Assembly: GCA_050633785.1 (NCBI GenBank) | Contig: JBOEHE010000055.1 | Span: 24,490-48,489, forward strand | From: Arenicella sp. | Lineage (GTDB): Bacteria; Pseudomonadota; Gammaproteobacteria; Arenicellales; Arenicellaceae | Reading direction: 5' to 3' | Length of the DNA: 24,000 nt | In this document: in pieces, positions 1,627-18,173 of the stretch | Numbering within the stretch: position 1 is the first letter of the stretch | Layout of the letters: each line of letters opens with the position of its first letter | The notes under the pieces: generated by a model | The model's database searches: none | The model's input: only the letters and a program-made list of their open reading frames with translations | What the model was told of the DNA's origin: nothing | Made by a program: the position numbers and the translations under genes

Positions 1627-3435
1627 CTACGATGCTCTCGAAGCTCTTTTGCGTTCGTGTTCCTTTAAGAAACGTTTACGTACTCGGATGCTTTCCGGAG
1701 TGATTTCAACCAACTCGTCATCATCAATAAATTCCAGAGCACCTTCCAAACTATGCTTGATAGCAGGAACTAACTGAATAGCATCGTCTTTACCAGAAGC
1801 TCGGACATTGGTTAATTGCTTGCCTTTAAGCGGGTTAACCGTTAAATCGTTATCACGTGAGTGGATACCAACTACTTGCCCCTCATAAACCATTTCCGTA
1901 GGTTTAATCATTATGCGGCCTCGTTCCTGCAAATTAAACAGAGCAAAAGCCAGGGCTTTACCACTGCCATTAGAAATCAAAACCCCATTTTTGCGTTGTC
2001 CATAAGATTTTTCTTTCTTCGGACCGTATTTATCAAATACGTGATAAATCAGACCTGAACCAGAAGTCAGAGTCATGAACTCGGTTTGAAAACCAATCAA
2101 ACCACGCGATGGGATAACGAAATCCAAGCGAACGCGCCCTTTACCATCCGGATTCATGGACTGCAAATCGCCACCACGTTCTTGCAGAGCCTGCATAACC
2201 GAACCTTGGTTCTCGTCAACTATATCCACTGTAAGTTGCTCATAGGGCTCGTGAATCGCCCCATCAACGTCCTTAAAGATAACTTCAGGCCGAGACACCG
2301 CCAATTCAAAACCTTCACGGCGCATGTTTTCGATCAATACCGACAAGTGCAATTCACCACGTCCAGATACTTTAAACTTCTCCGGATCCGGTGTATCTTC
2401 AACGCGCAAAGCAACATTGTGCAATAATTCTTTTTGTAAACGATCACGAATCTGTCGCGAAGTCAGGTATTTACCTTCCTGGCCAGCCATAGGCGACGTG
2501 TTAACCTGAAAAGTCATGGTAACCGTAGGTTCATCTACAGATAACGGCGGCAAAGCCTCTACAGCATCACGGTCGCATAAGGTATCCGATATATTGAGAA
2601 CTTCGAGGCCGGTAATCGCTACAATGTCTCCTGCAGTCGCCTGTTCAACTTCAACTCGCTCTAGACCTTTAAAACCAAACACCTGCATGACCCTACCATT
2701 ACGGGTACTTCCATCAGAAGCAACAACAGTAACAGGCGTATTCTTCCCAGCACTGCCCTGCTTGATTCGACCAATACCGATAACACCAAGATAATTGGAG
2801 TAATCCAACTGCGATATCTGCATTTGAAATGGTTCATCAATTTCAACCGGTGGTGGTGGGACATGATCAACAATCGCTTGAAATAAAGCATCCATATTTC
2901 CAGGACGTTCGTCAGCTGACTCGCAGGCAAAGCCTTCCAAGGCGGAGGCATAAATCACCGGAAAGTCCAACTGTTCATCGGTTGCACCCAAAGTGTCAAA
3001 CAAGTCGAAAGTCTGTTCCAGAACCCAGTCTGGGCGGGCACCTTCACGGTCAATTTTATTAATCACAACAATAGGTTTTAAATTGTGTTCAAAAGCCTTT
3101 TGGGTCACAAATCGAGTTTGTGGCATAGGTCCGTCTACGGCATCGACCAATAATAATACTGAGTCGACCATAGATAAAATACGCTCTACTTCGCCACCAA
3201 AATCAGCATGCCCTGGCGTATCAACGATATTAATACGATAGTCATTCCATGTAAGCGCCGTTGGCTTTGCCAAAATAGTGATACCTCGCTCTTTCTCGAT
3301 ATCATTACTGTCCATTACTCGTTCAATTAGCTCAGCGCGTTGGTCGAATGTACCAGATTGTTGAAGCAATTTATCAACCAAAGTGGTTTTACCATGATCG
3401 ACGTGCGCAATGATGGCTATGTTACGTAATTTCAT
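1627..3435 (-). CDS. typA: Translational GTPase TypA/BipA
   Basis: 602 aa. G1 motif [29 protein letters not shown] and NKID are present. The EF-G-like domain order and the C-terminal basic tail are typical of BipA. Confidence 0.97.
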
Positions 3436-6619: not shown

Positions 6620-8098
6620 GTGAAATTTGCCCTAAAAACAGCAGTATTAAGCAGCGTAAAAACCGATTGCCTTGTTATCGGTGTCCACAAAAACAACACA
6701 ACTGAACTCTCGGACCTGCTTGGCGTTGATGTAAAATCGCTTTGCAAACAGCACTTAGACAAACAAAATGACTATGTCACATTGCATTCTCCATCACAGA
6801 TAACAGCAGAAAATGTTATTTTGGTGCGTCTTGAAAAAGACAGTAAGGGTTTACCAAAGGCAGTGATCAACGAAGTCAAACGACTTCATTATAAAGAATT
6901 AACCCTTGACATCGACACCCTTGTAGGTGAAGCAAAACAAACCGAAGAGTTTCTGCAACAACAGGACCTCTGGCTGAGACGCAGTATAGAGAGTATCGGA
7001 GACAACCTATATCAAGTAAAAAAAGAACCCTCAGGAACCGCTAAAGACACTAAATTCAATTTAAAGAAAATTGACTTTATCAGTAGCGACAAAAAGGCTG
7101 TCAAACAACTCAAACCCAGTTTACAATTGCTTGCAGCAACCGTTCAAGGCAAGAAATTTGCTCGTGATGTCAGTAACCTTCCTGGCAACATTTGCACACC
7201 AACCTACCTTGCTGCACAAGCGACTAAATTAGCTAAAGACAAAAACATTAAGACCAAAATTTTGACAGAGAAGCAAATGTCAGACCTTGGCATGCACTCT
7301 TTATTGTCCGTCAGCCGCGGTAGTCGACAACCAGCAAAACTAATCGTCATGGAATACAATGGCGCAAAAGACAAAAAAGCAGCGCCCTATGTACTCGTGG
7401 GCAAAGGCTTAACATTTGATGCCGGAGGCATATCGATTAAACCGTCAGCGAAAATGGACGAAATGAAATACGATATGTGTGGTGCGGCAAGTGTCATGGG
7501 TACCCTATTATCCGTAGCAGAACTGGAACTAGCCATTAATGTTGTTGTTATTGTTCCATCTTCTGAAAACCTGCCTGATGGCGATGCCAATAAGCCCGGT
7601 GATATCGTCACCAGCATGGCCGGCCACACCATCGAAATTCTCAATACCGATGCCGAAGGCCGTTTGATCCTGTGCGATGCTCTGACCTATGCAGAGCGTT
7701 TCAAACCTAAAATTGTGATCGATGTAGCAACTTTGACCGGTGCTTGCATTGTTGCTCTGGGTGCTCATGCCAGTGGTCTGATGGGCAATGATCAGGAACT
7801 CATTGACGATCTATTAAACGCTGGTGATAAGAGTGCAGACCGAGCTTGGCAACTACCTTTATGGGATGACTATCAAAAGCAATTGCATAGCAATTTTGCA
7901 GATATCGCCAATATCGGTGGACCAGGTGCAGGCACAGTGACCGCAGCCTGCTTTCTATCGCGCTTTACTGAAGATTATCGCTGGGCCCATTTGGATATCG
8001 CTGGCACAGCTTGGCAAAGCGGTGCACAAAAAGGGGCCACTGGCCGTTGCGTGCCACTATTGACACAATATTTATCTGACCAGGCTGAGTCGAAGTAA
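6620..8098 (+). CDS. pepA: Leucyl aminopeptidase (M17) PepA
   Basis: 492 aa with a GTG start 8 nt after AGGAG (6607-6611). M17 signature regions [30 protein letters not shown] and DVATLTGA are present. Confidence 0.95.
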
Positions 8099-8099
8099 A

Positions 8100-8591
8100 G
8101 TGTCAGGCATTCATCAACAAGTCGATTTTTACCTGCTCAACAACTCAGTTGAGCAGGGTCGATTGAAATTAACAACCCGCCTGTGCCAGAAAATTTTGAA
8201 AACAGGCAGTTCTGCACTTATTTACCTTGATGACATGGATGACTGTCATGGCTTGGACGATTTACTATGGTCTTATCAGGCCAGTAGCTTCATTCCTCAT
8301 GCTACAACAACTAAGGCTTCAACAATTTCTGCAAAAAAATATCCTATAATGCTACATCATGGTCTACACTTAGTAGAAGATGTTATGCAGTTCGATGTTT
8401 TGATTAACTTGACAGCCAATGCAGATGACTCTTTCTTAGCATTTCCAAGAATTGTTGAAATTGTTGACAATGATTCGGATGCTAAAGTTTTAGCTAGAAA
8501 ACGGTATAAATTTTACCAGAGTCAAAGTTCATTAATGCAATCTGACAAGTCACTCAACCTCACTCTCAAAACTCATGACATAATGATTTAG
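8100..8591 (+). CDS. holC: DNA polymerase III subunit chi
   Basis: 163 aa. It starts 1 nt after the pepA stop. The N-terminal VDFYLL pattern and the pepA-holC-valS synteny fit chi. The C-terminus is about 15 aa longer than E. coli chi. Confidence 0.85.
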   Translation: MSGIHQQVDFYLLNNSVEQGRLKLTTRLCQKILKTGSSALIYLDDMDDCHGLDDLLWSYQASSFIPHATTTKASTISAKKYPIMLHHGLHLVEDVMQFDVLINLTANADDSFLAFPRIVEIVDNDSDAKVLARKRYKFYQSQSSLMQSDKSLNLTLKTHDIMI

Positions 8592-8629
8592 TTTTTTTAG
8601 TCTTTGTAAAATTAAGTACCCATTCGTAA

Positions 8630-9064
8630 ATGACTCCCAAACAACAACAAATAGAAAAACAATTGGCAGCTCTTCGAGGATTACTTGAAGATGATATAGC
8701 AGCGGCTAAACAAGCCGAAAAGAGTGCTTCAACATCCGATAATTTTTCCATCGATGATTCCTTATTGGAACTTGAGGAATTAGAACTTGAAGAATTGGAA
8801 GAACCCGGTAAAGACACTGCTTATCTTGCAGATGAGCCAGTCCCATCTGCTGAAGCCAGTTCAATCCCTGTAGCACTAAAGTCTATTCAACCTGGTGATT
8901 TTTTGAATTTCAAAAAACATAAAAACACTCAAGTTATGTTCCTGATTCAACAGTATTTAAAAAAGCACGGTAAACCAAGTGCAAACAGCCCTGAATTAGA
9001 AATTTTAAAGAAAGCCATTAACCGAATTCTCAGCAAAGGTCAGCAAGCTCGCTCACAAAATTAA
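8630..9064 (+). CDS. Hypothetical acidic/coiled-coil protein in the holC-valS slot
   Basis: 144-aa ORF. It has a Gln/Glu-rich N-terminal half with LELEELELEELEE and a basic helical C-terminal half. No family recognised. A small hypothetical gene occupies this position in other Gammaproteobacteria. Confidence 0.6.
   Translation: MTPKQQQIEKQLAALRGLLEDDIAAAKQAEKSASTSDNFSIDDSLLELEELELEELEEPGKDTAYLADEPVPSAEASSIPVALKSIQPGDFLNFKKHKNTQVMFLIQQYLKKHGKPSANSPELEILKKAINRILSKGQQARSQN
8768..8797 (+). repeat. In-frame 15-nt tandem repeat (gaacttgaRgaattR x2 plus a partial third)
   Basis: Units at 8768-8782 and 8783-8797 differ at 2 positions. They encode the ELEEL repeats. Confidence 0.8.
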
Positions 9065-9097
9065 CGAGCTTGATTTTTACAGCACCCAATGGAATAG

Positions 9098-9139
9098 CTG
9101 ATTTCTCATTGTTACAAGCATATGGCAATGAAAAATCAG
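9098..9139 (+). other. Long imperfect hairpin between the acidic ORF and valS
   Basis: CTGATTTCTCATTG (9098-9111) pairs with CAATGAAAAATCAG (9126-9139) at 13 of 14 positions, with a 14-nt loop. No clear U-tract follows (ttgttgctg). Confidence 0.35.
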
Positions 9140-9266
9140 TTGTTGCTGCAAACCAATAGCGTAATAAGAAGCAGGCTTGTAAATACTGCAAAATAATTCT
9201 GTCAACGGACGAACGATAAAACTATAATCCGCTTGTTAATCTTCACCAACAAGCACTAATACGTCT

Positions 9267-12050
9267 ATGAGCAAAACTTCTCTAGCCAGCCAATATAATC
9301 CAGCCTCAATTGAGCAGTCCATTTATCAACGATGGGAATCAAACAAACAGTTTGCCCCAAACCCTGATGGAGAAGGCTCCTACTGTATTGCTATCCCTCC
9401 TCCCAACGTAACTGGGAGCCTGCATATGGGTCATGCTTTTCAGGATACGATTATGGACTTGTTGATTCGCCATCAACGGATGCTTGGAAAAAAAACCCTG
9501 TGGCAAGTAGGCACAGACCACGCAGGTATTGCCACACAAATGGTCGTAGAACGGCGTTTAGCTGCCCAGGACACCACCAGGCATGACCTTGGCAGAGAGA
9601 AATTCATTGAAGAAATCTGGCGTTGGAAAGAACAATCCGGCGGTACAATCACCCAACAATTAAGGCGAATGGGAGCTTCTGTTGATTGGGAACGAGAACG
9701 GTTCACCATGGATGAAGGCTTATCTGATGCGGTTAGTGATGTGTTTATCCGTTTATACAATGAAGGCTTAATCTATAGAGGCAAACGTTTAGTCAACTGG
9801 GATCCGGTTCTGCATACCGCCGTATCAGACCTGGAAGTAGAACCTTCAGAAGAACAAGGCCATTTATGGCATCTTCGCTACCCCTTAGTTGACAAACCAG
9901 GCCAGTTTCTGGTGGTTGCCACTACGCGGCCCGAAACAATGCTCGGAGATAGCGCCGTAGCGGTACACCCAGAAGATGAACGCTATCAGGACTTAATCGG
10001 ACAGCAGATACAGCTGCCCTTAACGGATCGCACAATTCCAATCATAGCCGACGATTATGTCGATCCTGAATTTGGCTCCGGTTGCGTAAAAATCACTCCA
10101 GCGCATGACTTCAATGACTATGAAGTAGGCAAACGTCATGACCTGCCCTTAATTAATATTCTTGATAAGAATGCTGCCATCGACTTGCCTGACTCTGATT
10201 ATCATGGACAAGATCGTTACGTTGCCCGCAAAAAGATTATTGCCGACTTCAAAGCACTAGACCTGCTTGAAAAAATTGATGATCACAAATTGATGGTACC
10301 TCGAGGTGATCGCTCTAACTCCGTCATAGAACCCTTTCTGACCGATCAATGGTATGTCAAAGTGGCACCACTGGCAGAACAAGCCATCAAGGTAGTCAAG
10401 GAAGGTGATATTAAATTCATCCCAGAAAACTGGTCAAACACGTACTTTGAGTGGATGAACAATATCGAAGACTGGTGTATTTCCAGACAAATATGGTGGG
10501 GACATCGAATTCCGGCCTGGTATGATAGCGATGGAAACATTTACGTTGCCGAAACTGAAGAAGAAGCTCAGAAACAAGCCGGAGAAGGTGTTGCAATCAA
10601 GCAGGACAATGACGTTCTGGATACCTGGTTCTCCTCTGCTTTATGGCCTTTTTCTACGTTGGGCTGGCCTGAACAGACGACTGAATTAGATGATTTTTAC
10701 CCGAACAATGTCTTGGTCACTGGGTTTGACATCATATTCTTCTGGGTTGCTCGTATGATTATGTTCGGCACAAAATTCACTGATCAAGTGCCTTTCAAAG
10801 AAGTGTATATTCATGGCCTGGTCCGCGATCAGGATGGTCAAAAGATGTCCAAGTCAAAAGGCAATGTACTTGACCCTCTGGATCTTATAGATGGAATCGA
10901 ATTGGAACCATTAGTAGAAAAACGCACTGCTGGTTTGATGCAACCTCAAATGGCTGCCAGAATTGAAAAATCCACACGCAAACACTTTGCCGATGGCATC
11001 CCTGCTTTTGGCACTGATGCTCTACGCTTCACCTTTGCCAGTCAGGCCACTCTAGGTAGAGATATTCGTTTTGATTTAGCCCGTGTTGAAGGTTACCGTA
11101 ATTTCTGTAACAAATTGTGGAACGCAGCGCGATACGTTCTGATGAACATTGAAGAGCATGATTGTGGCATTGACCATGATAATTTTGAACTATCACTTGC
11201 TGATCAATGGATTATCTCTCGACTGCAACAAGTTGAAGAATTGGTTGATAATGATATCAAGCACTATCGCTTTGACCAGATGGCTCAGCACTTATACCAA
11301 TTCGTCTGGGATGAATACTGTAGTTGGTATCTTGAATTGAGTAAAATCACACTCAACAATGACAATGCGACTGTGGCACAGTTGGCAGGCACTCGTCGCA
11401 CTCTTATTTTAGTGCTCGATGCAATTTTACGTTTATTGCACCCTATCACCCCGTTTATAACAGAAGAACTCTGGCAAGAAATCAAACCTATCATTGGTGC
11501 AGAGCAAGACACTATCATGTTGTGCAATTACCCACAGATTCAACAAAGCAAAATCAATGACGATGCATTAAACGCTATGCAATGGGTACAAGCCGTGATT
11601 ACTGGAGTTCGAAATATTCGCGGTGAGATGAATATAAAACCGAACAAACAGTTCCCAGTTTTGTTAGATCAGGCATCACCGTCAGACATTGCATTATTAG
11701 AACAACATGAAGCTTACATTCTGCAATTGGGCAGAATAGAGTCCATCACTGTTGTCAACGAAAGTGAGACTCCTGAGTCGGCAACGGCATTAGTTGGGGA
11801 TATGCAGGTTCTGGTTCCACTGGGAAGTTTAATTGACCCCGCTGAAGAATTGGCTCGTTTGCAAAAAGAATTGGAAAAGGTGGCCAAAGATATAGCTGCC
11901 TGCGAACACAAAATGAACAACGAACAATTTGTTTCCAAAGCTCCAGAAGCTGTTATAGGCAAGGTTAAGGACTCATTAAACCAAGCTCAACAGTCCAAGC
12001 AATTACTGTTGGAACAAAAGAAAAAAATAGAACAGTTATTGCCGAAATAG
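9267..12050 (+). CDS. valS: Valine--tRNA ligase
   Basis: 927 aa. HIGH motif [19 protein letters not shown] motif QKMSKSKGN, the CP1 editing region and the C-terminal coiled coil are typical of ValRS. Confidence 0.98.
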
Positions 12051-12081
12051 TATATCTAAACAGGCAAGGTTCGTTTCAATC

Positions 12082-12115
12082 AAGGTCAGGCTCTATGTTA
12101 TTAGAGTCTGGCCTT
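12082..12115. terminator. Hairpin terminator between convergent valS and the SGNH gene
   Basis: AAGGTCAGGCTCT-atgttatt-AGAGTCTGGCCTT forms a 13-bp stem that includes two positions pairing as G:U in plus-strand RNA but mismatched (A.C) on the minus strand. The T-tract that follows is weak (agctttatt). Confidence 0.5.
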
Positions 12116-12155
12116 AGCTTTATTGAATCAGGCTTTTGACTCAAAGTTCAATTCA

Positions 12156-12920
12156 TTAGTCCAACAACAACAATAAAATAGGCGCTGCGGCATTCACATT
12201 GTCTTCTGGCAGACTGGCAAACCATTCATCCGCCATTCTGGAGTTTCCTGCACTATTGAAATGCAATTTATCCCCTGAATGATAGGCATTAAAGTTACTT
12301 ACCAGTTTCGTGTATTGGTCTGCCAGAGAGAATTTTTTTGAATTCTGTAAAGCAATGATATTAGGATTATATGACTGAACCCGAGCATCCAATGAACCCG
12401 TGCTCTGATTGGGAGTTACCGTAGCAACCAAAGGAAAAGTATCTCTTGCATTTGCCTGATCAATCATGACACCGATATTAAACGCAACTGTTGTGCGCGA
12501 GACATTCGCATACGCATCATTGGCACCTCCCATTATCGCAATATAATCCGAAGGGGTCGCATTCATGACACTATTAATGCGATTCACCATTGAACTGGTT
12601 CTCTCACCATTGACTCCCCAGTTATAAACAACTCCTGTATCACCCTCTGCATTGATCAGATCAGCCAGATCAGAAGTATAGCCACCTCGATTAACACGTC
12701 CATTACCAATACAGGTTGGGTCAGAGCTGGAGGTCTGGCCTGTGGCACCACAATATAAATAAGTACCATTGGAATTACGATATAAGCCTGCAGTTATACT
12801 GTCACCGAAAGCTATTACCCGTATTGTCTCGGCCTGAACATGCGTGGGAAGTAGCAACATAAGTGCTGACATAAGCCCAGCAATAGACATATATGAACAT
12901 TTAAATCGTCGAAACATCAT
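12156..12920 (-). CDS. Secreted SGNH/GDSL-family hydrolase (lipase/esterase)
   Basis: Signal peptide ending ..LLLPTHVQA/ET. All SGNH blocks are present: FGDSITAG (Ser), NWGVNG (Gly), MGGANDA (Asn) and GDKLHF (DxxH). Confidence 0.85.
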   Translation of the reverse strand: MMFRRFKCSYMSIAGLMSALMLLLPTHVQAETIRVIAFGDSITAGLYRNSNGTYLYCGATGQTSSSDPTCIGNGRVNRGGYTSDLADLINAEGDTGVVYNWGVNGERTSSMVNRINSVMNATPSDYIAIMGGANDAYANVSRTTVAFNIGVMIDQANARDTFPLVATVTPNQSTGSLDARVQSYNPNIIALQNSKKFSLADQYTKLVSNFNAYHSGDKLHFNSAGNSRMADEWFASLPEDNVNAAAPILLLLLD

Positions 12921-12924
12921 AAAT

Positions 12925-12932
12925 CCCCCCCC
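12925..12932 (-). repeat. Homopolymeric G8 tract (C8 on the plus strand) in the 24-nt gap upstream of the SGNH gene start
   Basis: Read directly. The minus strand reads ...TAAAGGGGGGGGATTTATGATG..., so the tract is the only purine-rich SD candidate, 4 nt from the first ATG. Confidence 0.9.
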
Positions 12933-12944
12933 TTTACATACAAT

Positions 12945-13712
12945 TTAAGCAGTTTTTTCTGCTTTCTTTCGGTGCTTAATCGTTTTTACCGGCACTCCAG
13001 CGGACACTTCATATGCCCCTATCGATTTATTCACAACTGAACTGGTTCCTACAATACTACCTGTTTGTATTGTAACACCATCCATCACCTGCACATTACT
13101 GCCCAACCACACATTATTGGCTACAGTAATGCCACCCTGAGGCAAAAAGCCCTGCTGCTTAAAAGGAACATCCAGTTCTTCTGATATATAGGGCCCACTA
13201 CCAATAAAGTAACAATATGCACCACATAAAACATCGTCTCCAATATTTATATCACTGCCAGGCATTGAATGCACTAGAGAATTAATACCAATTGTACACC
13301 GAGCGCCAATATTTATGTTGCCATCTTTGCAGGATAAAATCGTATTTCGACTGAGTATAGTACCTGCACCGACAGACAAACCAGAATTATCGCTACCTTT
13401 AGCATCAAGCAATACATTGTCATCAATTGTAACATTATCTCCAACATGAACTTTGAGCCCATGTCGTATTCCCACATTTCGTCCAAAAATGACTCCAGTA
13501 CCAACCGAACCCAAAAGGCTTGGATAAAACAGTTTACGCAGAATAAACCCTAAAGCACCCGGCACCCATGAAGTGAATAACATGACTAATTCATATTTGC
13601 ACAAATACCAGAGACTATCATTGCCAACTGCCAACAAACGATAACGTTCAAAGGCCGATTTTGACTCATCTTTCAATTGGTCTTGCAGATTTTTTTCTGG
13701 TTTATATGACAT
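12945..13712 (-). CDS. Hexapeptide-repeat (left-handed beta-helix) acyl/acetyltransferase with a hydrophobic N-terminal segment
   Basis: 255 aa with repeated [LIV]-G-x4 hexapeptides (IGDNVTIDDNVLLDA, INIGARCTIG, INIGDDV, VWLGSNVQVMDGVTIQTGSIVG). The N-terminal YELVMLFTSWVPGALGFILRKLFYP segment resembles those of WcaF/NodL-type O-acetyltransferases. Confidence 0.8.
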   Translation of the reverse strand: MSYKPEKNLQDQLKDESKSAFERYRLLAVGNDSLWYLCKYELVMLFTSWVPGALGFILRKLFYPSLLGSVGTGVIFGRNVGIRHGLKVHVGDNVTIDDNVLLDAKGSDNSGLSVGAGTILSRNTILSCKDGNINIGARCTIGINSLVHSMPGSDINIGDDVLCGAYCYFIGSGPYISEELDVPFKQQGFLPQGGITVANNVWLGSNVQVMDGVTIQTGSIVGTSSVVNKSIGAYEVSAGVPVKTIKHRKKAEKTA

Positions 13713-13811
13713 ACTAAATACACTGTGGGCTGAGGATTAACTGGTAATACGATAAAGCGGCGTATTATAGCCTAAAAAACAAGGACTGAGGCTAGAAGTA
13801 ATGACAGCGGG

Positions 13812-14216
13812 TCACAGAGCTGGCTGTGTTTTTTCTAATGCCAGGGTATAACTGAAGGCATAAACAGTGCTGACTATACAACCCGGTAGAATAGTCATCA
13901 AAATTTCTGGAGTATTCGCCAGGTAGTTCACAGTCCAGGAAAAAAGACATACCAGAATAGAAGAACTCAAAAAAGTCGCTAAAAAACGTAACAAGGCAAG
14001 GCTAAAGCACTTAAAGAACTGCTCCATAACAATGGACATGACAAAAGTAAGAAAAAAACTGTTCATACCTTGAATAATTCCAGCTTTCATTGCCACCGAA
14101 AAACCATAAGCCGAATTAACATAAAATGCCCATGCTCCATAAAATAGCAACCCAGCCATTGCAGAAAGCAAACTGCGTTGGAAAGTTCCCATTTGATCAA
14201 ATAACTTTAGCATCAC
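13812..14216 (-). CDS. Small integral membrane protein (about 4 TM), family unknown
   Basis: 134-aa ORF. Its GTG (14216) or ATG (14213) start lies 3-6 nt after the olsA-like stop. It has four hydrophobic segments, no His residues and no recognisable motif. Confidence 0.65.
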   Translation of the reverse strand: MMLKLFDQMGTFQRSLLSAMAGLLFYGAWAFYVNSAYGFSVAMKAGIIQGMNSFFLTFVMSIVMEQFFKCFSLALLRFLATFLSSSILVCLFSWTVNYLANTPEILMTILPGCIVSTVYAFSYTLALEKTQPAL

Positions 14217-14219
14217 TAT

Positions 14220-15041
14220 TTACTGATCAGTGCTTCCAGAATTGCGCAACTCATTTTCCAGTGATTTTGACACAACATCAGTGCAGTGCTCAGCGCATGC
14301 TTTACGATCCGAGAAATCAGACAACTGCACGGGTTGGTGAAATTGAACAATAGCATCCAAGCGCTTCAAACCCAGAACACGTACGAAATGTGATCCAAAG
14401 GGCATATCCGCGTACCAGGCAAAATTATCTCTGGTCGCTTGGTTCATGCCCTCACCCGCATAGCGCGTATACACTATTGTGACGGGTTGTATCATAATAT
14501 TTTCGGCACTTGCAGCTGCCAACAAGCTACTTTTAAAGGGTTTAACTTCCGCACCATTAGTGCTGGTCCCTTCAGGAAATAAAATTAAATTAGTACCCGC
14601 TTGTAAGTGTTTACTTAAAATATTAATGTGCTGTCTGGCTTTACTCGCTTTACGCTCAATAAAAATAGTATTCTGCAACCGAGCAAGCTTATTAATTACG
14701 GGCCATGAACCAATTTCAGACTTTGCTACAAACCAACCTGGCAAATTTTGACCCAGAGCAAAAATATCCAGATAAGAAACATGATTACTGAGAAACAGCG
14801 TTGGCTTATGTTTAGAAACCTCTCCCTTAAACTGGACCCTCAAACCAATAATTCGGCACATAATTCCATGAAAGCAGATAATCATGCCTTCTGGTTTAAA
14901 TCCCGGAGCCAACCTGCATAGACAAAAAAGCAAAGGCATGATGGTAGCCCAAACGATAAAAGCCACAAAAAAAATGGCAAAACGAACCGGATTGAATTTA
15001 GCAAAGTCCCGGCTGACAGTTTCAGACACAATGTCAGTCAT
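14220..15041 (-). CDS. olsA: Lysophospholipid/lyso-aminolipid O-acyltransferase (PlsC/LPLAT family, OlsA-like)
   Basis: 273 aa with an N-terminal TM helix, the HX4D motif NHVSYLDI, and the FIERK and FPEGTSTNG motifs. It starts 8 nt downstream of an OlsB-like gene, which is the canonical olsB-olsA order. The symbol is inferred from motifs and context, not proven. Confidence 0.75.
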   Translation of the reverse strand: MTDIVSETVSRDFAKFNPVRFAIFFVAFIVWATIMPLLFCLCRLAPGFKPEGMIICFHGIMCRIIGLRVQFKGEVSKHKPTLFLSNHVSYLDIFALGQNLPGWFVAKSEIGSWPVINKLARLQNTIFIERKASKARQHINILSKHLQAGTNLILFPEGTSTNGAEVKPFKSSLLAAASAENIMIQPVTIVYTRYAGEGMNQATRDNFAWYADMPFGSHFVRVLGLKRLDAIVQFHQPVQLSDFSDRKACAEHCTDVVSKSLENELRNSGSTDQ

Positions 15042-15049
15042 AAACGTAC

Positions 15050-15874
15050 TTACTCTTCATCTTTGGTAACCAATACATGATTTGACGAACGCATTTCATT
15101 GCCATCGACATAAATACACAGAAACGTTGTATTAAAGACCGGATCTATAATTGCCGTTTCACTGACCTTCGCACCAATTTTTAAATAGCCACGTAACATC
15201 GTTGGAATATCAGCACGTTTTCCTGAACTGCCGACGTGCTCCAGATTATCAGCATCATATTCAATCTCGGAAATATTAATAAAATTATCAACAACAGGAA
15301 CTGGCATTAATTCATCTGGAGCCAGGTTATTTTCATACAAAAAACGCAAAATTGGAGCGTGTTTCTGGTATTCGGTAGAATGGAAGCTGGCACACCCCAA
15401 CATCAAGTCATAATCATTTTCGTTGATAAATCGCATGGTAAATTTCCAAATCAGCAATAATATCAAACCACCTCTCTTACCTGGTGCGACACAAGCCCGG
15501 CTCAGTTCAAGAAGTTTGTCATATTTTTCACGCAAGGGGTCAAGGTTATACGCTTTTTCAGTGTAAAAGCACTGCCCTTGCTGCAAACGGTGATTGCTGA
15601 CCAGCCGCATAGTGCCAACAACATCACCTGTTTTTTTATGTTTGACAATAACGTGATAAGCGATTGGATCCCATTCATCAATCTCACGTCCTTTGGCTGC
15701 CATTTCGTCGTTCATGACGCCCTTACCTTCTTTGAACAGCACATTAAAACGTAAGGTTTGAGCCTCTATTATGTCTTGCTCAGTCTGTGCAAAACCAACT
15801 TCATAAAGACCAACTTCTAAGGTTTTAGCCAACGCAGCAGCCATTTTTTTAAAAACTTTGGGTTTTATCGCCAT
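15050..15874 (-). CDS. olsB: GNAT-fold N-acyltransferase, OlsB-like (aminolipid N-acyl amino acid synthase)
   Basis: 274 aa. The LEV.LA.T..DI.EAQ.LRF.VF opening, D.WD..A.H.IV, G..RL, LSR..V and the C-terminal P..LRGYLK.GA pattern match the OlsB/hemolysin-like acyltransferase family. The amino-acid head group cannot be told from sequence. Confidence 0.75.
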   Translation of the reverse strand: MAIKPKVFKKMAAALAKTLEVGLYEVGFAQTEQDIIEAQTLRFNVLFKEGKGVMNDEMAAKGREIDEWDPIAYHVIVKHKKTGDVVGTMRLVSNHRLQQGQCFYTEKAYNLDPLREKYDKLLELSRACVAPGKRGGLILLLIWKFTMRFINENDYDLMLGCASFHSTEYQKHAPILRFLYENNLAPDELMPVPVVDNFINISEIEYDADNLEHVGSSGKRADIPTMLRGYLKIGAKVSETAIIDPVFNTTFLCIYVDGNEMRSSNHVLVTKDEE

Positions 15875-15996
15875 GATATTTTAAAATTTACACACTGTAT
15901 CAATAATACTTTAAGTGACTAGAGTATTTCTAGGCAATATTCCATAAAGGTACACAACTGATTAGCACTGTACTCTGGAGGAAATTCAGCACTCCA

Positions 15997-16737
15997 TCAT
16001 GCGGCATCATGCTTAATCGATGTCCTGAGAGGTACGCCAATAGGCTGAGATAATTCAGCTTTACAAGGGGCCCCATCTGCATAAGCAAAAGTCACTTCCT
16101 GCTTGTTAACCACGATATGACTCAAGCTGACACTATTCGCATCATCCCGATGCATACACACTGAATAAGCCGACGCTGAAGGATCATGACTGCAATGAAA
16201 AGCTAAAAAGGCTTCTCTGTCAGTAGACTCATGCAAACCTTGTGATACAAATTGCTGTTTACGACCCGCTCGAACCTTCTCTGGTTCAAATGATGATGAG
16301 GAGCGCGGAGTTACTATGTCAAATTCTTTCGTGGTTGTCTCTCCATCCCAGGTAAAGAAAACAGATTTGCCTTGAGCATCCAAGGCGAATAAGCGAAATG
16401 GCTTGTATTCATTTAAATCAATTTGAGCAAATGTATATTCGATAACGCTCAATGACGCATGAGTTGCCAGACTTCGAATAATCCCCCCTCGGCTTATCCA
16501 GTCTATATGAGGAATGCGTTGTTCCTTTTCATAATGGTTCAACAGACAAAGACTCAAACCAAAATGATTGACACTTACCCAAGTCCCACCAGCATCGGTA
16601 TCCGTCGGGGAAATAACATCAACTCCAGATTGTGTAGTCAACACCGGTATATCAGCTCTGCGCCTAGTCTTATGTTCATCTCGGTTAAAAAACAACTCAT
16701 AACCATCTTCAGTTTTAAACCAACTCATCGTGCACAT
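15997..16737 (-). CDS. NRDE family protein (DUF833/TANGO2-like)
   Basis: 246 aa. It begins MCT (Cys2) and carries the eponymous FNRDE motif at residues 17-21. Its start is separated by 1 nt from the upstream stop (TGAtATG). Confidence 0.8.
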   Translation of the reverse strand: MCTMSWFKTEDGYELFFNRDEHKTRRRADIPVLTTQSGVDVISPTDTDAGGTWVSVNHFGLSLCLLNHYEKEQRIPHIDWISRGGIIRSLATHASLSVIEYTFAQIDLNEYKPFRLFALDAQGKSVFFTWDGETTTKEFDIVTPRSSSSFEPEKVRAGRKQQFVSQGLHESTDREAFLAFHCSHDPSASAYSVCMHRDDANSVSLSHIVVNKQEVTFAYADGAPCKAELSQPIGVPLRTSIKHDAA

Positions 16738-16738
16738 A

Positions 16739-17263
16739 TCAAGCTCTCTTCTCTAGTGTTCGTTGAAAGTTTAAGGTTGCATTAGCCACACCGAATTGTT
16801 GATCCACGGGATATCCAAGCAAGCGCAACATCGCTGCTATCATAGCCGAGTGATGTTCAGTATGCCCAATCAAAAACATCAACTCACGGTGAATGGAAGA
16901 ATGAACTTCATGGCAACTGTGATCATCTTGAACCAATAGCTTATGCGGTTGCCCCTGTTCATTTTGACAATTAAACGACGCTATATTGTTTTTTATCTGC
17001 TGCAATTGTTCACGACAGTATTTCATGTCGGTTTCTAAACGTAAATTGCGTTCACGCTTGTCATAGTTGATCGTCGCTTTTTCTGAAAGTTGTGCAAAGA
17101 AGCACTGGTAATGTTCAATGATATGGCGGTAATGTGCGCCTATAGATGATTGAAAGGCTGGAGTAGCCACCGCTTTATAGACTTTGGCGGGAAAATCATC
17201 CAGAGCCCTGATCAAAAAATCAATGGATGTATCGTTTGCTTCAACATAAATGCCCAAGCTCAT
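16739..17263 (-). CDS. DinB/YfiT-like four-helix-bundle protein (putative metal-dependent enzyme)
   Basis: 174 aa with a strong AGGAG RBS 9 nt upstream. The His-rich helices HYRHIIEHY and GHTEHHSAMIAAMLRLLG resemble the DinB-superfamily His triad. The assignment is by pattern only. Confidence 0.5.
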   Translation of the reverse strand: MSLGIYVEANDTSIDFLIRALDDFPAKVYKAVATPAFQSSIGAHYRHIIEHYQCFFAQLSEKATINYDKRERNLRLETDMKYCREQLQQIKNNIASFNCQNEQGQPHKLLVQDDHSCHEVHSSIHRELMFLIGHTEHHSAMIAAMLRLLGYPVDQQFGVANATLNFQRTLEKRA

Positions 17264-17471
17264 AAGCTGAATCTCCTATCTGTAGGTGACAATCCGTGCA
17301 ACAACACTGTTGGCAGACAGAACAAAACGCCAGCTTCGGCATTTTTAAATACATTACATTCACTCATCAATTACTCTTCTTTTAATATATTCGCTCAGTA
17401 ATGAGACCGATATTACCCCAATATGCTTACTCACTACCTAACAAATCCTTCATTTATTAATACCAGACTCA

Positions 17472-18173
17472 CTATTGGGCCGCGACAAACACTGCTGCAG
17501 CTGAGATTGCTGCGGTTTCTGTACGTAGAATATGACTGCCAAGCTTCACAGCAGTTACCCCTTTATTCTGAAAGTACTGCATCTCATTTGCTGAAAAACC
17601 ACCTTCAGGCCCGATCATAATCAAAGCATTTGAATGAGCTATCTGGGGGACACTGACCCCTTCCTGATCAGCATAATAAGTCAGCACATCACTCTGCGTC
17701 ACTGATTCAACAGCTTGCTGCGGAGTCATAAGACTTCGAAGTTCAGGAATAAAGGGATTTTCAGACTGCTTGCAGGCTTCAATAATACCACGTTGCCATT
17801 TATCCATATGCTTATCATTTATCTTGCTTACAGAAAACTCACATTGCAATGGAATAAACGCCTTAATCCCAAGTTGAGTTAACATATCCAGCATAGTTTT
17901 AGACCTATCTCCTTTGGGAACAGCAGCAGCAATAGTTATCTCAAAATCAGGACTTGCTACTATTTCTACCTCGTTGATTCGAACCGATACCTGACGTTTC
18001 CTGATAACGTCAATTACTGCATTCGCTTTAACACCTTTGCCATTGATCAGAATAACCGAATCACCTTCATGCAAACGACGAACTGAAACCGCATGGTGAC
18101 TCTCACCCTCAGATAAAACCACAAGCTCTCCCGACAACAGAGCCTGATCATGAAAAAATTTAGGAGTAGCCAT
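17472..18173 (-). CDS. rsmE: 16S rRNA (uracil1498-N3)-methyltransferase RsmE
   Basis: MATPKFFHD aligns with the E. coli RsmE opening MRIPRIYHPE. The C-terminal IGPEGGFS..E, G...V.LG..ILRTETA motif is present. I prefer the ATG at 18173. The track's GTG at 18182 is the alternative. Confidence 0.9.
   Translation of the reverse strand: MATPKFFHDQALLSGELVVLSEGESHHAVSVRRLHEGDSVILINGKGVKANAVIDVIRKRQVSVRINEVEIVASPDFEITIAAAVPKGDRSKTMLDMLTQLGIKAFIPLQCEFSVSKINDKHMDKWQRGIIEACKQSENPFIPELRSLMTPQQAVESVTQSDVLTYYADQEGVSVPQIAHSNALIMIGPEGGFSANEMQYFQNKGVTAVKLGSHILRTETAAISAAAVFVAAQ

Follow-up and report, generated by a model that had tools for sequence, protein, structure and literature searches.

Which of the genes that surround an olsB-olsA pair act together with it in aminolipid metabolism? 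This question is raised by a 24,000-nucleotide stretch of DNA (the window) from an Arenicella sp. MAG, the OlsB-like protein of which is 100% identical to an NCBI protein from such a MAG. Here olsBA lies within seven consecutive minus-strand genes (12156-17263), which an earlier note had proposed to be functionally linked as a whole. Our reading of the sequence suggests instead a composite block, to which we assign a probability of about 0.65: a five-gene aminolipid cluster, in which a DinB-like protein (DinB), a TANGO2/NRDE-like protein (NRDE), and a small membrane protein (TM4) would act in the same pathway as OlsB and OlsA, plus a lineage-specific appendage formed by a hexapeptide-repeat transferase (Hexa) and an SGNH esterase.

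Organization of the gene block

The ORF list confirmed the coordinates of the seven genes and the gaps of 1, 122, 8, 3, 99, and 24 nt between them, and the family assignments held up against Pfam and NCBIfam profile matches, motifs, and predicted structures. There are six terminator-like sites in positions 11800-17700, compared with 5.0 ± 2.3 in shuffled sequences, and the minus-strand sites within the block all fall inside ORFs, so the statement that it contains no convincing internal terminator still holds. According to the terminator scan, a hairpin with a 14-bp stem (12082-12115) separates valS from SGNH, which converge on it, and likely terminates transcription in both directions and marks where the block ends on its 3′ side; another hairpin, in the 208-nt gap between rsmE and DinB (17324-17345, minus strand), could be a weak terminator-like 5′ boundary. 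Two promoter-like sites were found on the minus strand inside the block. The first, TAGAAA-18-TATTAT in the 122-nt NRDE-OlsB gap (15903-15932), comes from a consensus scan only and implies that the two halves of the block may be transcribed separately. The second is a perfect TATAAT read in the 99-nt TM4-Hexa gap (13764-13769), which could be an own promoter for the last two genes, with no good −35 element seen in that gap.

The OlsB and OlsA families catalyze the N-acylation of an amino acid and then the O-acylation of the 3-hydroxy fatty acid. In the window, the OlsB-like N-acyltransferase (274 aa; 15050-15874, minus strand), putatively lyso-aminolipid-forming, matches PF13444 and FeeM, as well as NF052554 over its full length (161 bits against an equivalog cutoff of 350). 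The OlsA-like lyso-aminolipid O-acyltransferase (273 aa; 14220-15041, minus strand) matches PF01553 and, also over its full length, NF052553 (193 bits against a cutoff of 300), and it presents the HX4D motif HVSYLD and one N-terminal TM helix (residues 23-41). Because both scores are well under the equivalog cutoffs, the matches point to the families but to no particular head group. From established family knowledge, the two acyltransferases would produce an acyloxyacyl aminolipid. A PF13444/FeeM N-acyltransferase and an LPLAT with HX4D are likewise adjacent in the ornithine-lipid pathway of Sinorhizobium meliloti and the Pseudomonas aeruginosa olsBA operon, and head-group variants of this pathway include the glutamine lipid of GluB/OlsA and a lysine lipid (reviewed in PMC12971839). 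Unlike that pathway, the window cluster carries DinB-like, TANGO2-like, and TM4 genes.

Conservation of the module

The comparison covered 79 genome loci with OlsB as the anchor, at identities reaching down to about 50%, as well as metagenome loci. Of the 79 genome loci, 46 have NRDE next to OlsB; among these, 45 contain DinB and 45 OlsA, these being counts of species-level loci. In 59 of the 71 loci having upstream sequence, DinB is no more than 6 kb away from OlsB, and it is adjacent to NRDE in 45/46 NRDE-positive loci, where the two genes usually overlap. The median spacing is −13 nt between DinB and NRDE, 88 nt between NRDE and OlsB, and 179 nt between rsmE and DinB (35 loci). The module occurs in two unrelated contexts: in 34 loci it follows fabV-rsmJ-rsmE, and at least seven others (L028, L029, L035, L040, L041, L043-45) have a divergent gene (c25) upstream of DinB and c20-c21 downstream. 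Furthermore, the metagenome loci L091 and L092, whose OlsB is only 26% and NRDE 44% identical to those of the window, contain a permuted cluster of overlapping genes in the order OlsB, OlsA, DinB, NRDE. In the closest relatives of the window the NRDE-OlsB gap is occupied by an ATP-grasp gene with spacers of 6 and 52 nt, which makes one continuous gene string, and in Cellvibrionaceae and Endobugula loci DinB lies directly upstream of OlsB without NRDE. Orthologs of OlsB and NRDE are also present in A. xantha and A. chitinivorans, both of which are in culture. The NRDE-positive loci belong mostly to one order-level lineage (Arenicellales-like MAGs) together with one unplaced metagenome lineage, so the two contexts, the single permutation, and some insertions make up only a small number of independent rearrangements. 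The conserved module consists of DinB, NRDE, OlsB, and OlsA, and it is by guilt by association, through this conserved neighbourhood, that DinB, NRDE, and TM4 are linked to olsBA.

Hexa and SGNH

The last two genes encode a WcaF/WbbJ-like hexapeptide-repeat acetyl/acyltransferase (255 aa; 12945-13712, minus strand) and a secreted SGNH/GDSL esterase (254 aa; 12156-12920, minus strand). The first one matches PF00132 and the WcaF-family model NF007797 (62 bits against a cutoff of 192); it had been described as membrane-anchored, which is unsupported, as no segment of the protein qualified as a TM helix by hydropathy. The second one matches PF13472 and PF00657 and has the GDS, GAND, and DKLH blocks, and its N-terminus resembles a signal peptide. 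If all seven genes constituted one operon-like system, Hexa would add a third acyl or acetyl group and the secreted esterase would deacylate the aminolipid in the periplasm. The gene order of the window is indeed kept in the metagenomic locus L089 and, with one or two inserted genes, in L086 and L087, no terminator was found between genes inside the block, and esterase-type genes recur by olsBA elsewhere (the alpha/beta hydrolase c34 and a hydrolase in L091), which makes a hydrolase slot in this neighbourhood plausible. However, Hexa and SGNH are found together only in these three close relatives (OlsB 68-77% identical), and the housekeeping flanks of the four loci are equally syntenic (valS and fabV 72-79% identical), so that their seven-gene conservation is uninformative. 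When co-occurrence and gene order were checked in the 79 genome loci, a hexapeptide homolog was present in only two (L002 and L075), away from TM4 and preceded by a 2-hydroxyacid dehydrogenase gene, and an SGNH homolog in none (0/79). The proposed seven-gene linkage therefore stood for DinB, NRDE, and TM4, which are kept with olsBA in differing contexts, in permuted order, and, for TM4, as fusions, but not for the hexapeptide and SGNH genes. The perfect TATAAT in the TM4-Hexa gap, the fact that the best family matches of Hexa are polysaccharide O-acetyltransferases (WcaF/WbbJ), and the presence in L086 of a TylF-type methyltransferase gene (PF05711, a family that typically O-methylates sugars) between Hexa and SGNH also argue against a single seven-gene system, which we consider unlikely. 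The membership of these two genes is doubtful: they would rather form a lineage-specific pair, probably transcribed separately, that more likely decorates another envelope component. Nevertheless, none of the four loci of the closest clade lacks either gene, so the pair may have a role on the aminolipid that is particular to this clade.

DinB and the TANGO2/NRDE-like protein

DinB, the first gene of the module (174 aa; 16739-17263, minus strand), encodes a putative metalloprotein that matches PF05163 (36.8 bits against a cutoff of 23, E 4.9e-9) and in which H47, H134, H137, H138, R46, Y52, Y67, R70, R72, R126, and E127 are invariant across 16 orthologs. NRDE (246 aa; 15997-16737, minus strand) matches PF05742 (49.5 bits against a cutoff of 22.6, E 8.6e-13) in residues 1-161 only, and its C-terminal 85 residues, outside the Pfam match, contain the subfamily-invariant H184, C194, H196, and C225. 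The protein begins with MCT, an N-terminus found in 46/47 orthologs, and carries an N18-R19-D20-E21 motif that is also conserved. Its AF2 model (pLDDT 91.5) has a predicted alpha-beta-beta-alpha fold, for which the best Foldseek matches were human TANGO2 (8sv7/9bwa, E 1e-9), followed by CV2077, isopenicillin-N acyltransferase, bile-salt hydrolases, NAAA, and acid ceramidase. Cys2 and the N-R-D-E motif are common to the family (human TANGO2, Shewanella HtpA, and Chromobacterium CV2077, 3gvz), and Asn67 is the equivalent of Asn75 of human TANGO2, although identity to the human protein is only about 15% and, unlike for the window NRDE, an olsBA context has not been described for HtpA or TANGO2.

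The crystal structure of human TANGO2 has been read as a Cys-Ntn hydrolase for fatty-acid derivatives of unknown substrate, no activity having been demonstrated for any NRDE-family member (PMC13044924), and TANGO2 binds acyl-CoA (PMC11867700). In the model, the fold and the arrangement of the N-terminal Cys nucleophile appear to match those of Cys-Ntn lipid-amide hydrolases and acyltransferases (bile-salt hydrolase/transferase, penicillin V acylase, NAAA, acid ceramidase, and acyl-CoA:isopenicillin-N acyltransferase), albeit with 10-14% identity and in a different Pfam family. The amide is the type of bond that OlsB makes, and these enzymes act on amides by cleaving or transferring fatty or steroid acyl groups. 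We infer that NRDE could carry out amide/thioester editing: Cys2 would become the N-terminal nucleophile once Met is removed and most likely form a thioester. The protein would then either act on the lyso-aminolipid (N-acyl amino acid), hydrolyzing its amide or using it for transacylation, or handle an acyl-thioester donor, leading to editing, remodelling, or turnover of the aminolipid. DinB, as a putative His-triad metalloprotein that travels with NRDE and olsBA, would act in the same pathway as a metal-dependent partner of NRDE.

Alternatively, DinB and NRDE could be a separate pair of genes that owes its place next to olsBA simply to inherited synteny and functions as an HtpA-like heme chaperone or as a thiol/detoxification pair. 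The DinB family includes thiol transferases, the 122-nt gap with its promoter-like site parts NRDE from OlsB, and a single lineage supplies most NRDE-positive loci. In addition, Shewanella HtpA, a bacterial TANGO2 homolog, has been reported to be a heme-trafficking protein (PMC10470608), although the heme role of TANGO2 homologs is contested (PMC12782551, PMC13044924). Moreover, the pair stays by olsBA despite changed flanks and, near a divergent OlsB, in permuted order, the pathway-type ATP-grasp gene bridges NRDE and OlsB in close relatives with 6-52-nt spacers, and DinB lies directly upstream of OlsB in lineages without NRDE, all of which makes an independent unit improbable.

TM4

TM4 (134 aa; 13812-14216, minus strand) is a four-helix membrane protein of an unnamed family, with no match in Pfam or NCBIfam; its AF2 model (pLDDT 94.9) consists of four long helices, and no fold match was found in the PDB. 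The family comprises 749 cluster representatives at E<=1e-3. TM4 comes directly after OlsA or YHS in 38/79 genome loci, the OlsA-TM4 adjacency is kept where the pair precedes OlsB or lies on the opposite strand, and OlsA is immediately upstream of TM4 in all six informative TM4-anchored metagenome loci. Furthermore, TM4 is fused to a FeeM/OlsB-like N-acyl amino-acid synthase (P0331) and to a penicillin/AHL-acylase-type amidase (P0284). It is absent within 10 kb in about 40% of the NRDE-positive loci, and distant family members are found in unrelated contexts. Conserved polar residues of the helices are R14, N34, Q49, S53, T57, E65, and T102-P103. From the OlsA adjacency and the fusions we infer a role in the membrane handling or flipping of the aminolipid: TM4, probably coupled translationally to olsA (3-nt gap), would receive the N-acyl amino-acid lipid and most likely flip it or pass it on from the cytoplasmic leaflet, or alternatively dock OlsA/OlsB. 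ArnE/ArnF are small SMR-like 4-TM flippases that flip a cationic lipid-linked sugar. TM4 is like them in that it is about 130 aa long, spans the membrane with four helices, has a conserved acidic residue inside the membrane (E65), and is encoded at the end of a lipid-modification operon, but without any Pfam match or PDB structural match the analogy is functional only.

Finally, the same-strand run extends to ten genes, as fabV, rsmJ, and rsmE precede DinB, which makes co-direction alone weak evidence. That these housekeeping genes share the strand and that GC skew is uniformly negative over the window would suit olsBA being the sole functional unit, with five unrelated neighbours packed between rsmE and valS in a strongly strand-biased region, but unless clustering is selected for, it is hard to account for the conservation statistics, the alternative contexts, the permuted order, and the fusions of TM4, and we disfavour this explanation as very improbable.

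Discussion

Several accessory enzymes are known to act on the finished aminolipid: OlsC and OlsD are LpxO-like Fe/2-OG hydroxylases, OlsE is a di-iron hydroxylase, and OlsG is an N-methyltransferase. The earlier description of the known modifiers as hydroxylases was thus incomplete, the more so as ornithine lipids are also modified by an ATP-dependent taurine transferase whose gene is not known (PMC12971839). It was right, however, that the other five proteins are unlike these modifiers, with no match to those families in Pfam or NCBIfam. An LpxO/OlsC-like gene comes after TM4 in eight related loci, and there is none in the window. In PMC open-access and bioRxiv full texts we found no paper containing both "DinB" and "ornithine lipid" and none linking olsBA with TANGO2. 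Two recent aminolipid reviews (2024 and 2026) name no such accessory genes; the word DinB is absent from the 2026 review, and flippase, transport, and degradation are absent from both. The conserved partners of olsBA, among them a bacterial protein related to human TANGO2, itself a disease protein, point to an undescribed step in the editing or moving of phosphorus-free membrane lipids.

Layout of the block

The seven consecutive minus-strand ORFs at 12156-17263 had been described as a co-directional extension of olsB-olsA, and their coordinates are as claimed, with gaps of 1, 122, 8, 3, 99 and 24 nt. The family calls made then were borne out by Pfam and NCBIfam matches: in order, a DinB-like protein, a TANGO2/NRDE-like protein (hereafter NRDE), an OlsB-like and an OlsA-like acyltransferase, a 134-aa four-helix membrane protein (TM4), a 255-aa hexapeptide transferase (Hexa) and a 254-aa SGNH esterase. 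Hexa had also been called membrane-anchored, and we found no segment in it hydrophobic enough for a transmembrane helix. The lack of an internal terminator holds as well, as terminator-like hairpins are not commoner than in shuffled sequences and those on the minus strand of the block all lie inside ORFs; a strong hairpin between SGNH and the convergent valS closes the block, and a weak one is located 3' of rsmE. Because the co-directional run is in fact ten genes long (fabV, rsmJ, rsmE and then the seven), co-direction by itself is no evidence.

The wider surroundings are ordinary chromosome, with the gene order bipA, RDD, lptG, lptF, pepA, holC, valS, the block, rsmE, rsmJ, fabV and an sbmA/bacA-like gene. 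An Rfam search of the window returned no RNA family, repeats within the block are limited to short two-copy chance matches, and a by-eye search of the 122-nt gap gave no convincing Pho box, the available relatives being too divergent for DNA-level footprinting. Two plus-strand ORFs have no Pfam family, one of 174 aa (372-896) and one of 144 aa (8630-9064), the latter between holC and valS.

Gene order around OlsB

The OlsB-like protein, found with 100% identity in an Arenicella sp. MAG, is a GNAT-like N-acyltransferase of the OlsB/FeeM type (PF13444, E 6.9e-22; PF21926 FeeM, E 2.5e-7) and aligns over its full length with NF052554 (residues 23-266 against 7-250 of 256). An equivalog-level OlsB match, which would imply ornithine specificity, was not reached (161 bits for a cutoff of 350, 132 bits for one of 320). 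Directly downstream, after 8 nt, lies the gene for the OlsA-like protein, an LPLAT O-acyltransferase (PF01553, E 6.4e-23) with the HX4D motif HVSYLD at residues 87-92, which scores 193 bits against NF052553 (cutoff of 300 not reached). Judged from these matches, the cluster is of the OlsBA type, a known kind, to which conserved and so far undescribed accessory genes are added.

We aligned 20 OlsB homologues and collected 79 genome loci around OlsB relatives, one per species with 10-kb flanks, which were compared by tblastn with the window proteins, all-against-all ORF clustering, and counts. In 71 loci the upstream sequence is 1.5 kb or longer; of these, 59 have a DinB-like gene near OlsB and 44 have NRDE. 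DinB and OlsA are each present in 45 of the 46 NRDE-positive loci, and the order is always DinB>NRDE>OlsB>OlsA. The median distances are operon-like (DinB-NRDE -13 nt, NRDE-OlsB 88 nt, OlsB-OlsA 32 nt, and 179 nt for rsmE-DinB), these values being approximate because start codons were picked by a simple rule. As in the window, 34 of the 46 lie downstream of fabV-rsmJ-rsmE, while at least seven (L028, L029, L035, L040, L041, L043-45) occupy another neighbourhood, with gene c25 divergent upstream and c20-c21 downstream. The four genes thus moved, or were kept, as a unit although their flanks changed. Loci of the Cellvibrionaceae and of the Endobugula type lack NRDE, and in these DinB is often directly upstream of OlsB. 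Furthermore, a metagenomic cluster carries the genes permuted and overlapping, OlsB>OlsA>DinB>NRDE, with an NRDE homologue 44% identical to that of the window and an OlsB only 26% identical. That the four families are kept together despite a changed order and a different OlsB lineage is the strongest argument for a selected association.

The functional linkage proposed in the earlier note for all seven genes is in this way partly supported: gene-order comparison links five of them (DinB, NRDE, OlsB, OlsA and TM4) and leaves out Hexa and SGNH, while the mechanism is only what we infer. This linkage rests on genomic association, concentrated in one gammaproteobacterial lineage. Three loci (L012, L038, L078) come from records labelled as Cryomorphaceae or Polaribacter MAGs and yet have Arenicella-type synteny and an Arenicella-like OlsB (47-55% identical), so that these contigs are probably bin contamination.

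Hexa and SGNH

Hexa reaches the cutoff of the PF00132 LbH domain (32.3 bits; cutoff 27), and its best subfamily matches are WcaF/WbbJ-type O-acetyltransferases, below their cutoffs (NF007797, 62 against 192; NF007240, 54 against 243). SGNH matches PF13472 (68.7 bits; cutoff 32.9), has a signal-like N-terminus, and contains blocks I, III and V (GDS at 39, GAND at 132, DKLH at 217). The protein (12156-12920) ends, after the catalytic domain, in a short hydrophobic tail, …NAAAPILLLLLD, which could be a sorting or anchoring signal.

Among the 79 genome loci no SGNH homologue was found and Hexa occurs in two (L002, L075), where a D-2-hydroxyacid dehydrogenase gene separates it from TM4. In the three closest metagenomic relatives (OlsB 68-77% identical) TM4, Hexa and SGNH all lie between OlsA and valS, and in one of them (L086) a TylF-type methyltransferase gene is placed between Hexa and SGNH. 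This conservation says little, since the fabV, rsmJ, rsmE and valS flanks are equally syntenic in these relatives. Given the rarity of both genes, the syntenic flanks and a perfect TATAAT in the 99-nt gap preceding Hexa, we treat Hexa-SGNH as what is probably a separate, lineage-specific unit, perhaps an envelope-glycan acetylation/esterase pair; alternatively, the two proteins may act on the aminolipid in a clade-specific manner.

TM4, a four-helix membrane protein that accompanies OlsA

TM4 has no Pfam or NCBIfam match, not even a Pfam match at E<=1. Since a word-indexed search gave just 6 relatives, an exhaustive profile search was used instead, and this returned 749 cluster representatives at E<=1e-3, 436 of them at E<=1e-10. 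With an HMM built from the loci themselves, TM4 was found in 38 of 79. It always follows OlsA directly or with one small gene in between, which encodes a secreted YHS-domain protein, and the OlsA-TM4 pair is kept also where it lies 5' of OlsB or on the other strand. For the reverse test, a locus scan with a 6-sequence TM4 alignment returned only 8 loci, a 60-sequence alignment being too diverse; OlsA was immediately upstream in all six TM4-anchored metagenome loci having upstream sequence. The contexts of three distant family members (P0390, P0376, P0345) are heterogeneous and uninformative, which makes the olsA link a feature of the present TM4 subfamily. In locus L044, about 1987-2250 bases past the OlsB start, TM4 is split into two weak HMM matches in adjacent frames, which could reflect a frameshifted pseudogene or a sequencing error.

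Two fusions in the family are instructive. P0331 consists of TM4 and an N-acyl amino-acid synthase of the FeeM/OlsB-like kind, and the cluster in which it lies also encodes an acyl carrier protein, an AMP-ligase and an acyltransferase-like DUF374 protein. In P0284 it is joined via a fifth hydrophobic helix to an Ntn amidase of the penicillin-amidase/AHL-acylase type. By their family assignments, both partners are enzymes that form or cleave the N-acyl amide bonds of amphiphiles. The AF2 model of TM4 (pLDDT 94.9) consists of four long helices that carry the conserved polar residues R14, N34, Q49, S53, T57, E65 and T102; P103 is also conserved. Foldseek of this model against the PDB gave no fold match (best E 0.99). 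Membership of the SMR/ArnEF-type small flippases was rejected, as TM4 matches them neither in Pfam nor in structure and has only the four-helix size class in common with them.

The TANGO2-like and DinB-like proteins

The NRDE protein (15997-16737) scores 49.5 bits against PF05742 (gathering score 22.6), a match that covers only residues 1-161. It begins MCTMSW, with a Cys directly after the initiator Met, and the MCT N-terminus is found in 46 of 47 orthologues. The motif N18-R19-D20-E21 is invariant in 28 sequences and aligns with N25-R26-D27-E28 of human TANGO2, and in a profile of 28 orthologues Asn67 aligns with human Asn75. Profiles were used for the PDB sequence comparison of both proteins because single-sequence phmmer searches of NRDE and DinB returned chance matches only. 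The profile alignment with 8sv7, in which counterparts of the human C-terminal catalytic residues Asn157 and Lys166 were sought, spans only residues 10-123; the subfamily shows no variation at S147, S148 and R159. The AF2 model (pLDDT 91.5, pTM 0.90) retrieved human TANGO2 as the first PDB match in Foldseek (E 1.3e-9), further matches being the bacterial NRDE protein CV2077, acyl-CoA:isopenicillin-N acyltransferase (IAT), bile-salt hydrolases (BSH), penicillin V acylase (PVA), NAAA and acid ceramidase. The protein is thus predicted from its model to have an alpha-beta-beta-alpha Ntn fold. Residues 162-246, outside the Pfam match, include the subfamily-invariant H184, C194, H196 and C225, which together with the likewise invariant C64 could form a metal site specific to the olsBA-linked NRDE subfamily.

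The DinB-like protein matches PF05163 (36.8 bits; cutoff 23), and its His triad H47, H134 and H138, plus H137, is invariant in 16 orthologues, as are several Arg, Tyr and Glu residues. Its profile matches the DinB-like PDB entry 3di5 weakly (E 0.033).

Recurrent neighbours at other loci

One neighbour of olsB that recurs, in 20 of 79 loci, encodes a RimK-like ATP-grasp protein with a membrane anchor and about 352 aa (cluster c11). In the closest relatives it fills the position of the window's 122-nt gap (L086 6893-7948, L087 6895-7950), it lies between NRDE or DinB and OlsB also in L010, L033, L039, L061, L063, L068 and L073, and it is divergent from OlsB in L047-49, L066 and L071. Since no gene is known for the ATP-dependent transfer of taurine to ornithine lipid (PMC12971839), we regard this protein as a candidate head-group ligase. 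In L091, a single called gene of 859 aa (7013-9592) directly after OlsB-OlsA-DinB-NRDE combines an alpha/beta-hydrolase, a VTT/DedA-like region and an ATP-grasp homologue that shares 44% identity with c11; in L047, L049, L065 and L071 the alpha/beta-hydrolase (c34) and the ATP-grasp protein are encoded by separate, adjacent genes.

In L003-L045 and others (e.g. L006 11488-11946) the gene immediately after OlsA encodes a secreted protein of about 152 aa with a YHS domain (c4). It follows OlsA in 34 of the 40 NRDE-positive loci whose flank is long enough, and neither the window nor its closest relatives have it. An LpxO/OlsC-like gene of the aspartyl beta-hydroxylase family (c19) lies directly after TM4 in L006 (12446-13348) and seven other loci, which sets TM4 within a row of known aminolipid genes. 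The window has no homologues of these ATP-grasp, YHS, LpxO-like and alpha/beta-hydrolase neighbours, nor of the 2-hydroxyacid dehydrogenase; a weak DoxX-like match (3040-3210; E 0.005, about 25% identity over 59 aa) is far from the block.

Discussion

Aminolipids stand in for phospholipids in many marine and pathogenic bacteria. Three synthesis routes of ornithine and related lipids are recognised (OlsBA, OlsF and OlsHI), together with five modifications, four of them by OlsC, OlsD, OlsE and OlsG and the fifth a taurine transfer with no known gene (PMC12971839). None of the five accessory proteins resembles the known modifiers (LpxO-like OlsC and OlsD, OlsE, OlsG), as the earlier note had said for OlsC, OlsD and OlsE: they have no such Pfam or NCBIfam matches, and Asp_Arg_Hydrox, fatty-acid hydroxylase and PEMT-type domains are absent from them. 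No such accessory genes are named in the 2024 and 2026 aminolipid reviews; the words DinB, degradation, flippase and transport do not occur in the text of the latter (PMC12971839), and the former, in ISME J, likewise has none of the words looked for on transport, flipping or degradation of aminolipids. Among PMC open-access and bioRxiv full texts, we found no paper on both DinB and ornithine lipid, and none on both Arenicella and aminolipid.

We propose, with a probability of roughly one in four, that DinB-like, TANGO2-like, OlsB, OlsA and TM4 form an unrecognised aminolipid module in which the TANGO2-family protein, as a Cys-Ntn enzyme, would hydrolyse or transacylate the N-acyl amino-acid lipid or its acyl-thioester donor, and TM4 would represent a new family of proteins that flip or otherwise handle aminolipids. 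More generally, we infer that the DinB-NRDE pair acts on the amide formed by OlsB or on the acyl-thioester donor, in editing, remodelling or turnover, either as hydrolase or as transferase. Two other readings were kept as analogies, since a defining domain, for example FGE-sulfatase, is missing: an ergothioneine-like logic (an EgtB DinB domain with the EgtC Ntn amidase) and a thiol-conjugate chemistry suggested by DinB, DoxX and YHS neighbours.

Loss of TANGO2 causes severe metabolic disease in humans. The function of the protein is disputed between heme trafficking, acyl-CoA binding and Cys-Ntn hydrolysis (PMC11867700, PMC12782551, PMC13044924): it binds acyl-CoA (PMC11867700), its role in heme trafficking is contested (PMC12782551, PMC13044924), and a 2026 crystal-structure paper argues that the human protein is a Cys-Ntn hydrolase for fatty-acid derivatives, of unknown substrate (PMC13044924). 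For a Shewanella homologue a heme-chaperone role has been reported, with no mention of an olsBA context (PMC10470608). The conserved bacterial cluster links a TANGO2-family protein to an enzyme that makes N-acyl amide lipids, and so gives a defined candidate substrate class. This connection and TM4, an unnamed family of about 750 sequence clusters and a candidate for the missing membrane-handling step of aminolipids, are the main reasons for interest in the cluster, in a field where the reviews themselves raise the question of why head-group and modification diversity exists (PMC12971839). If the proposal is true, it would provide the first substrate-level assignment for the TANGO2 family, and TM4 would fill a gap in how aminolipids leave the cytoplasmic leaflet.
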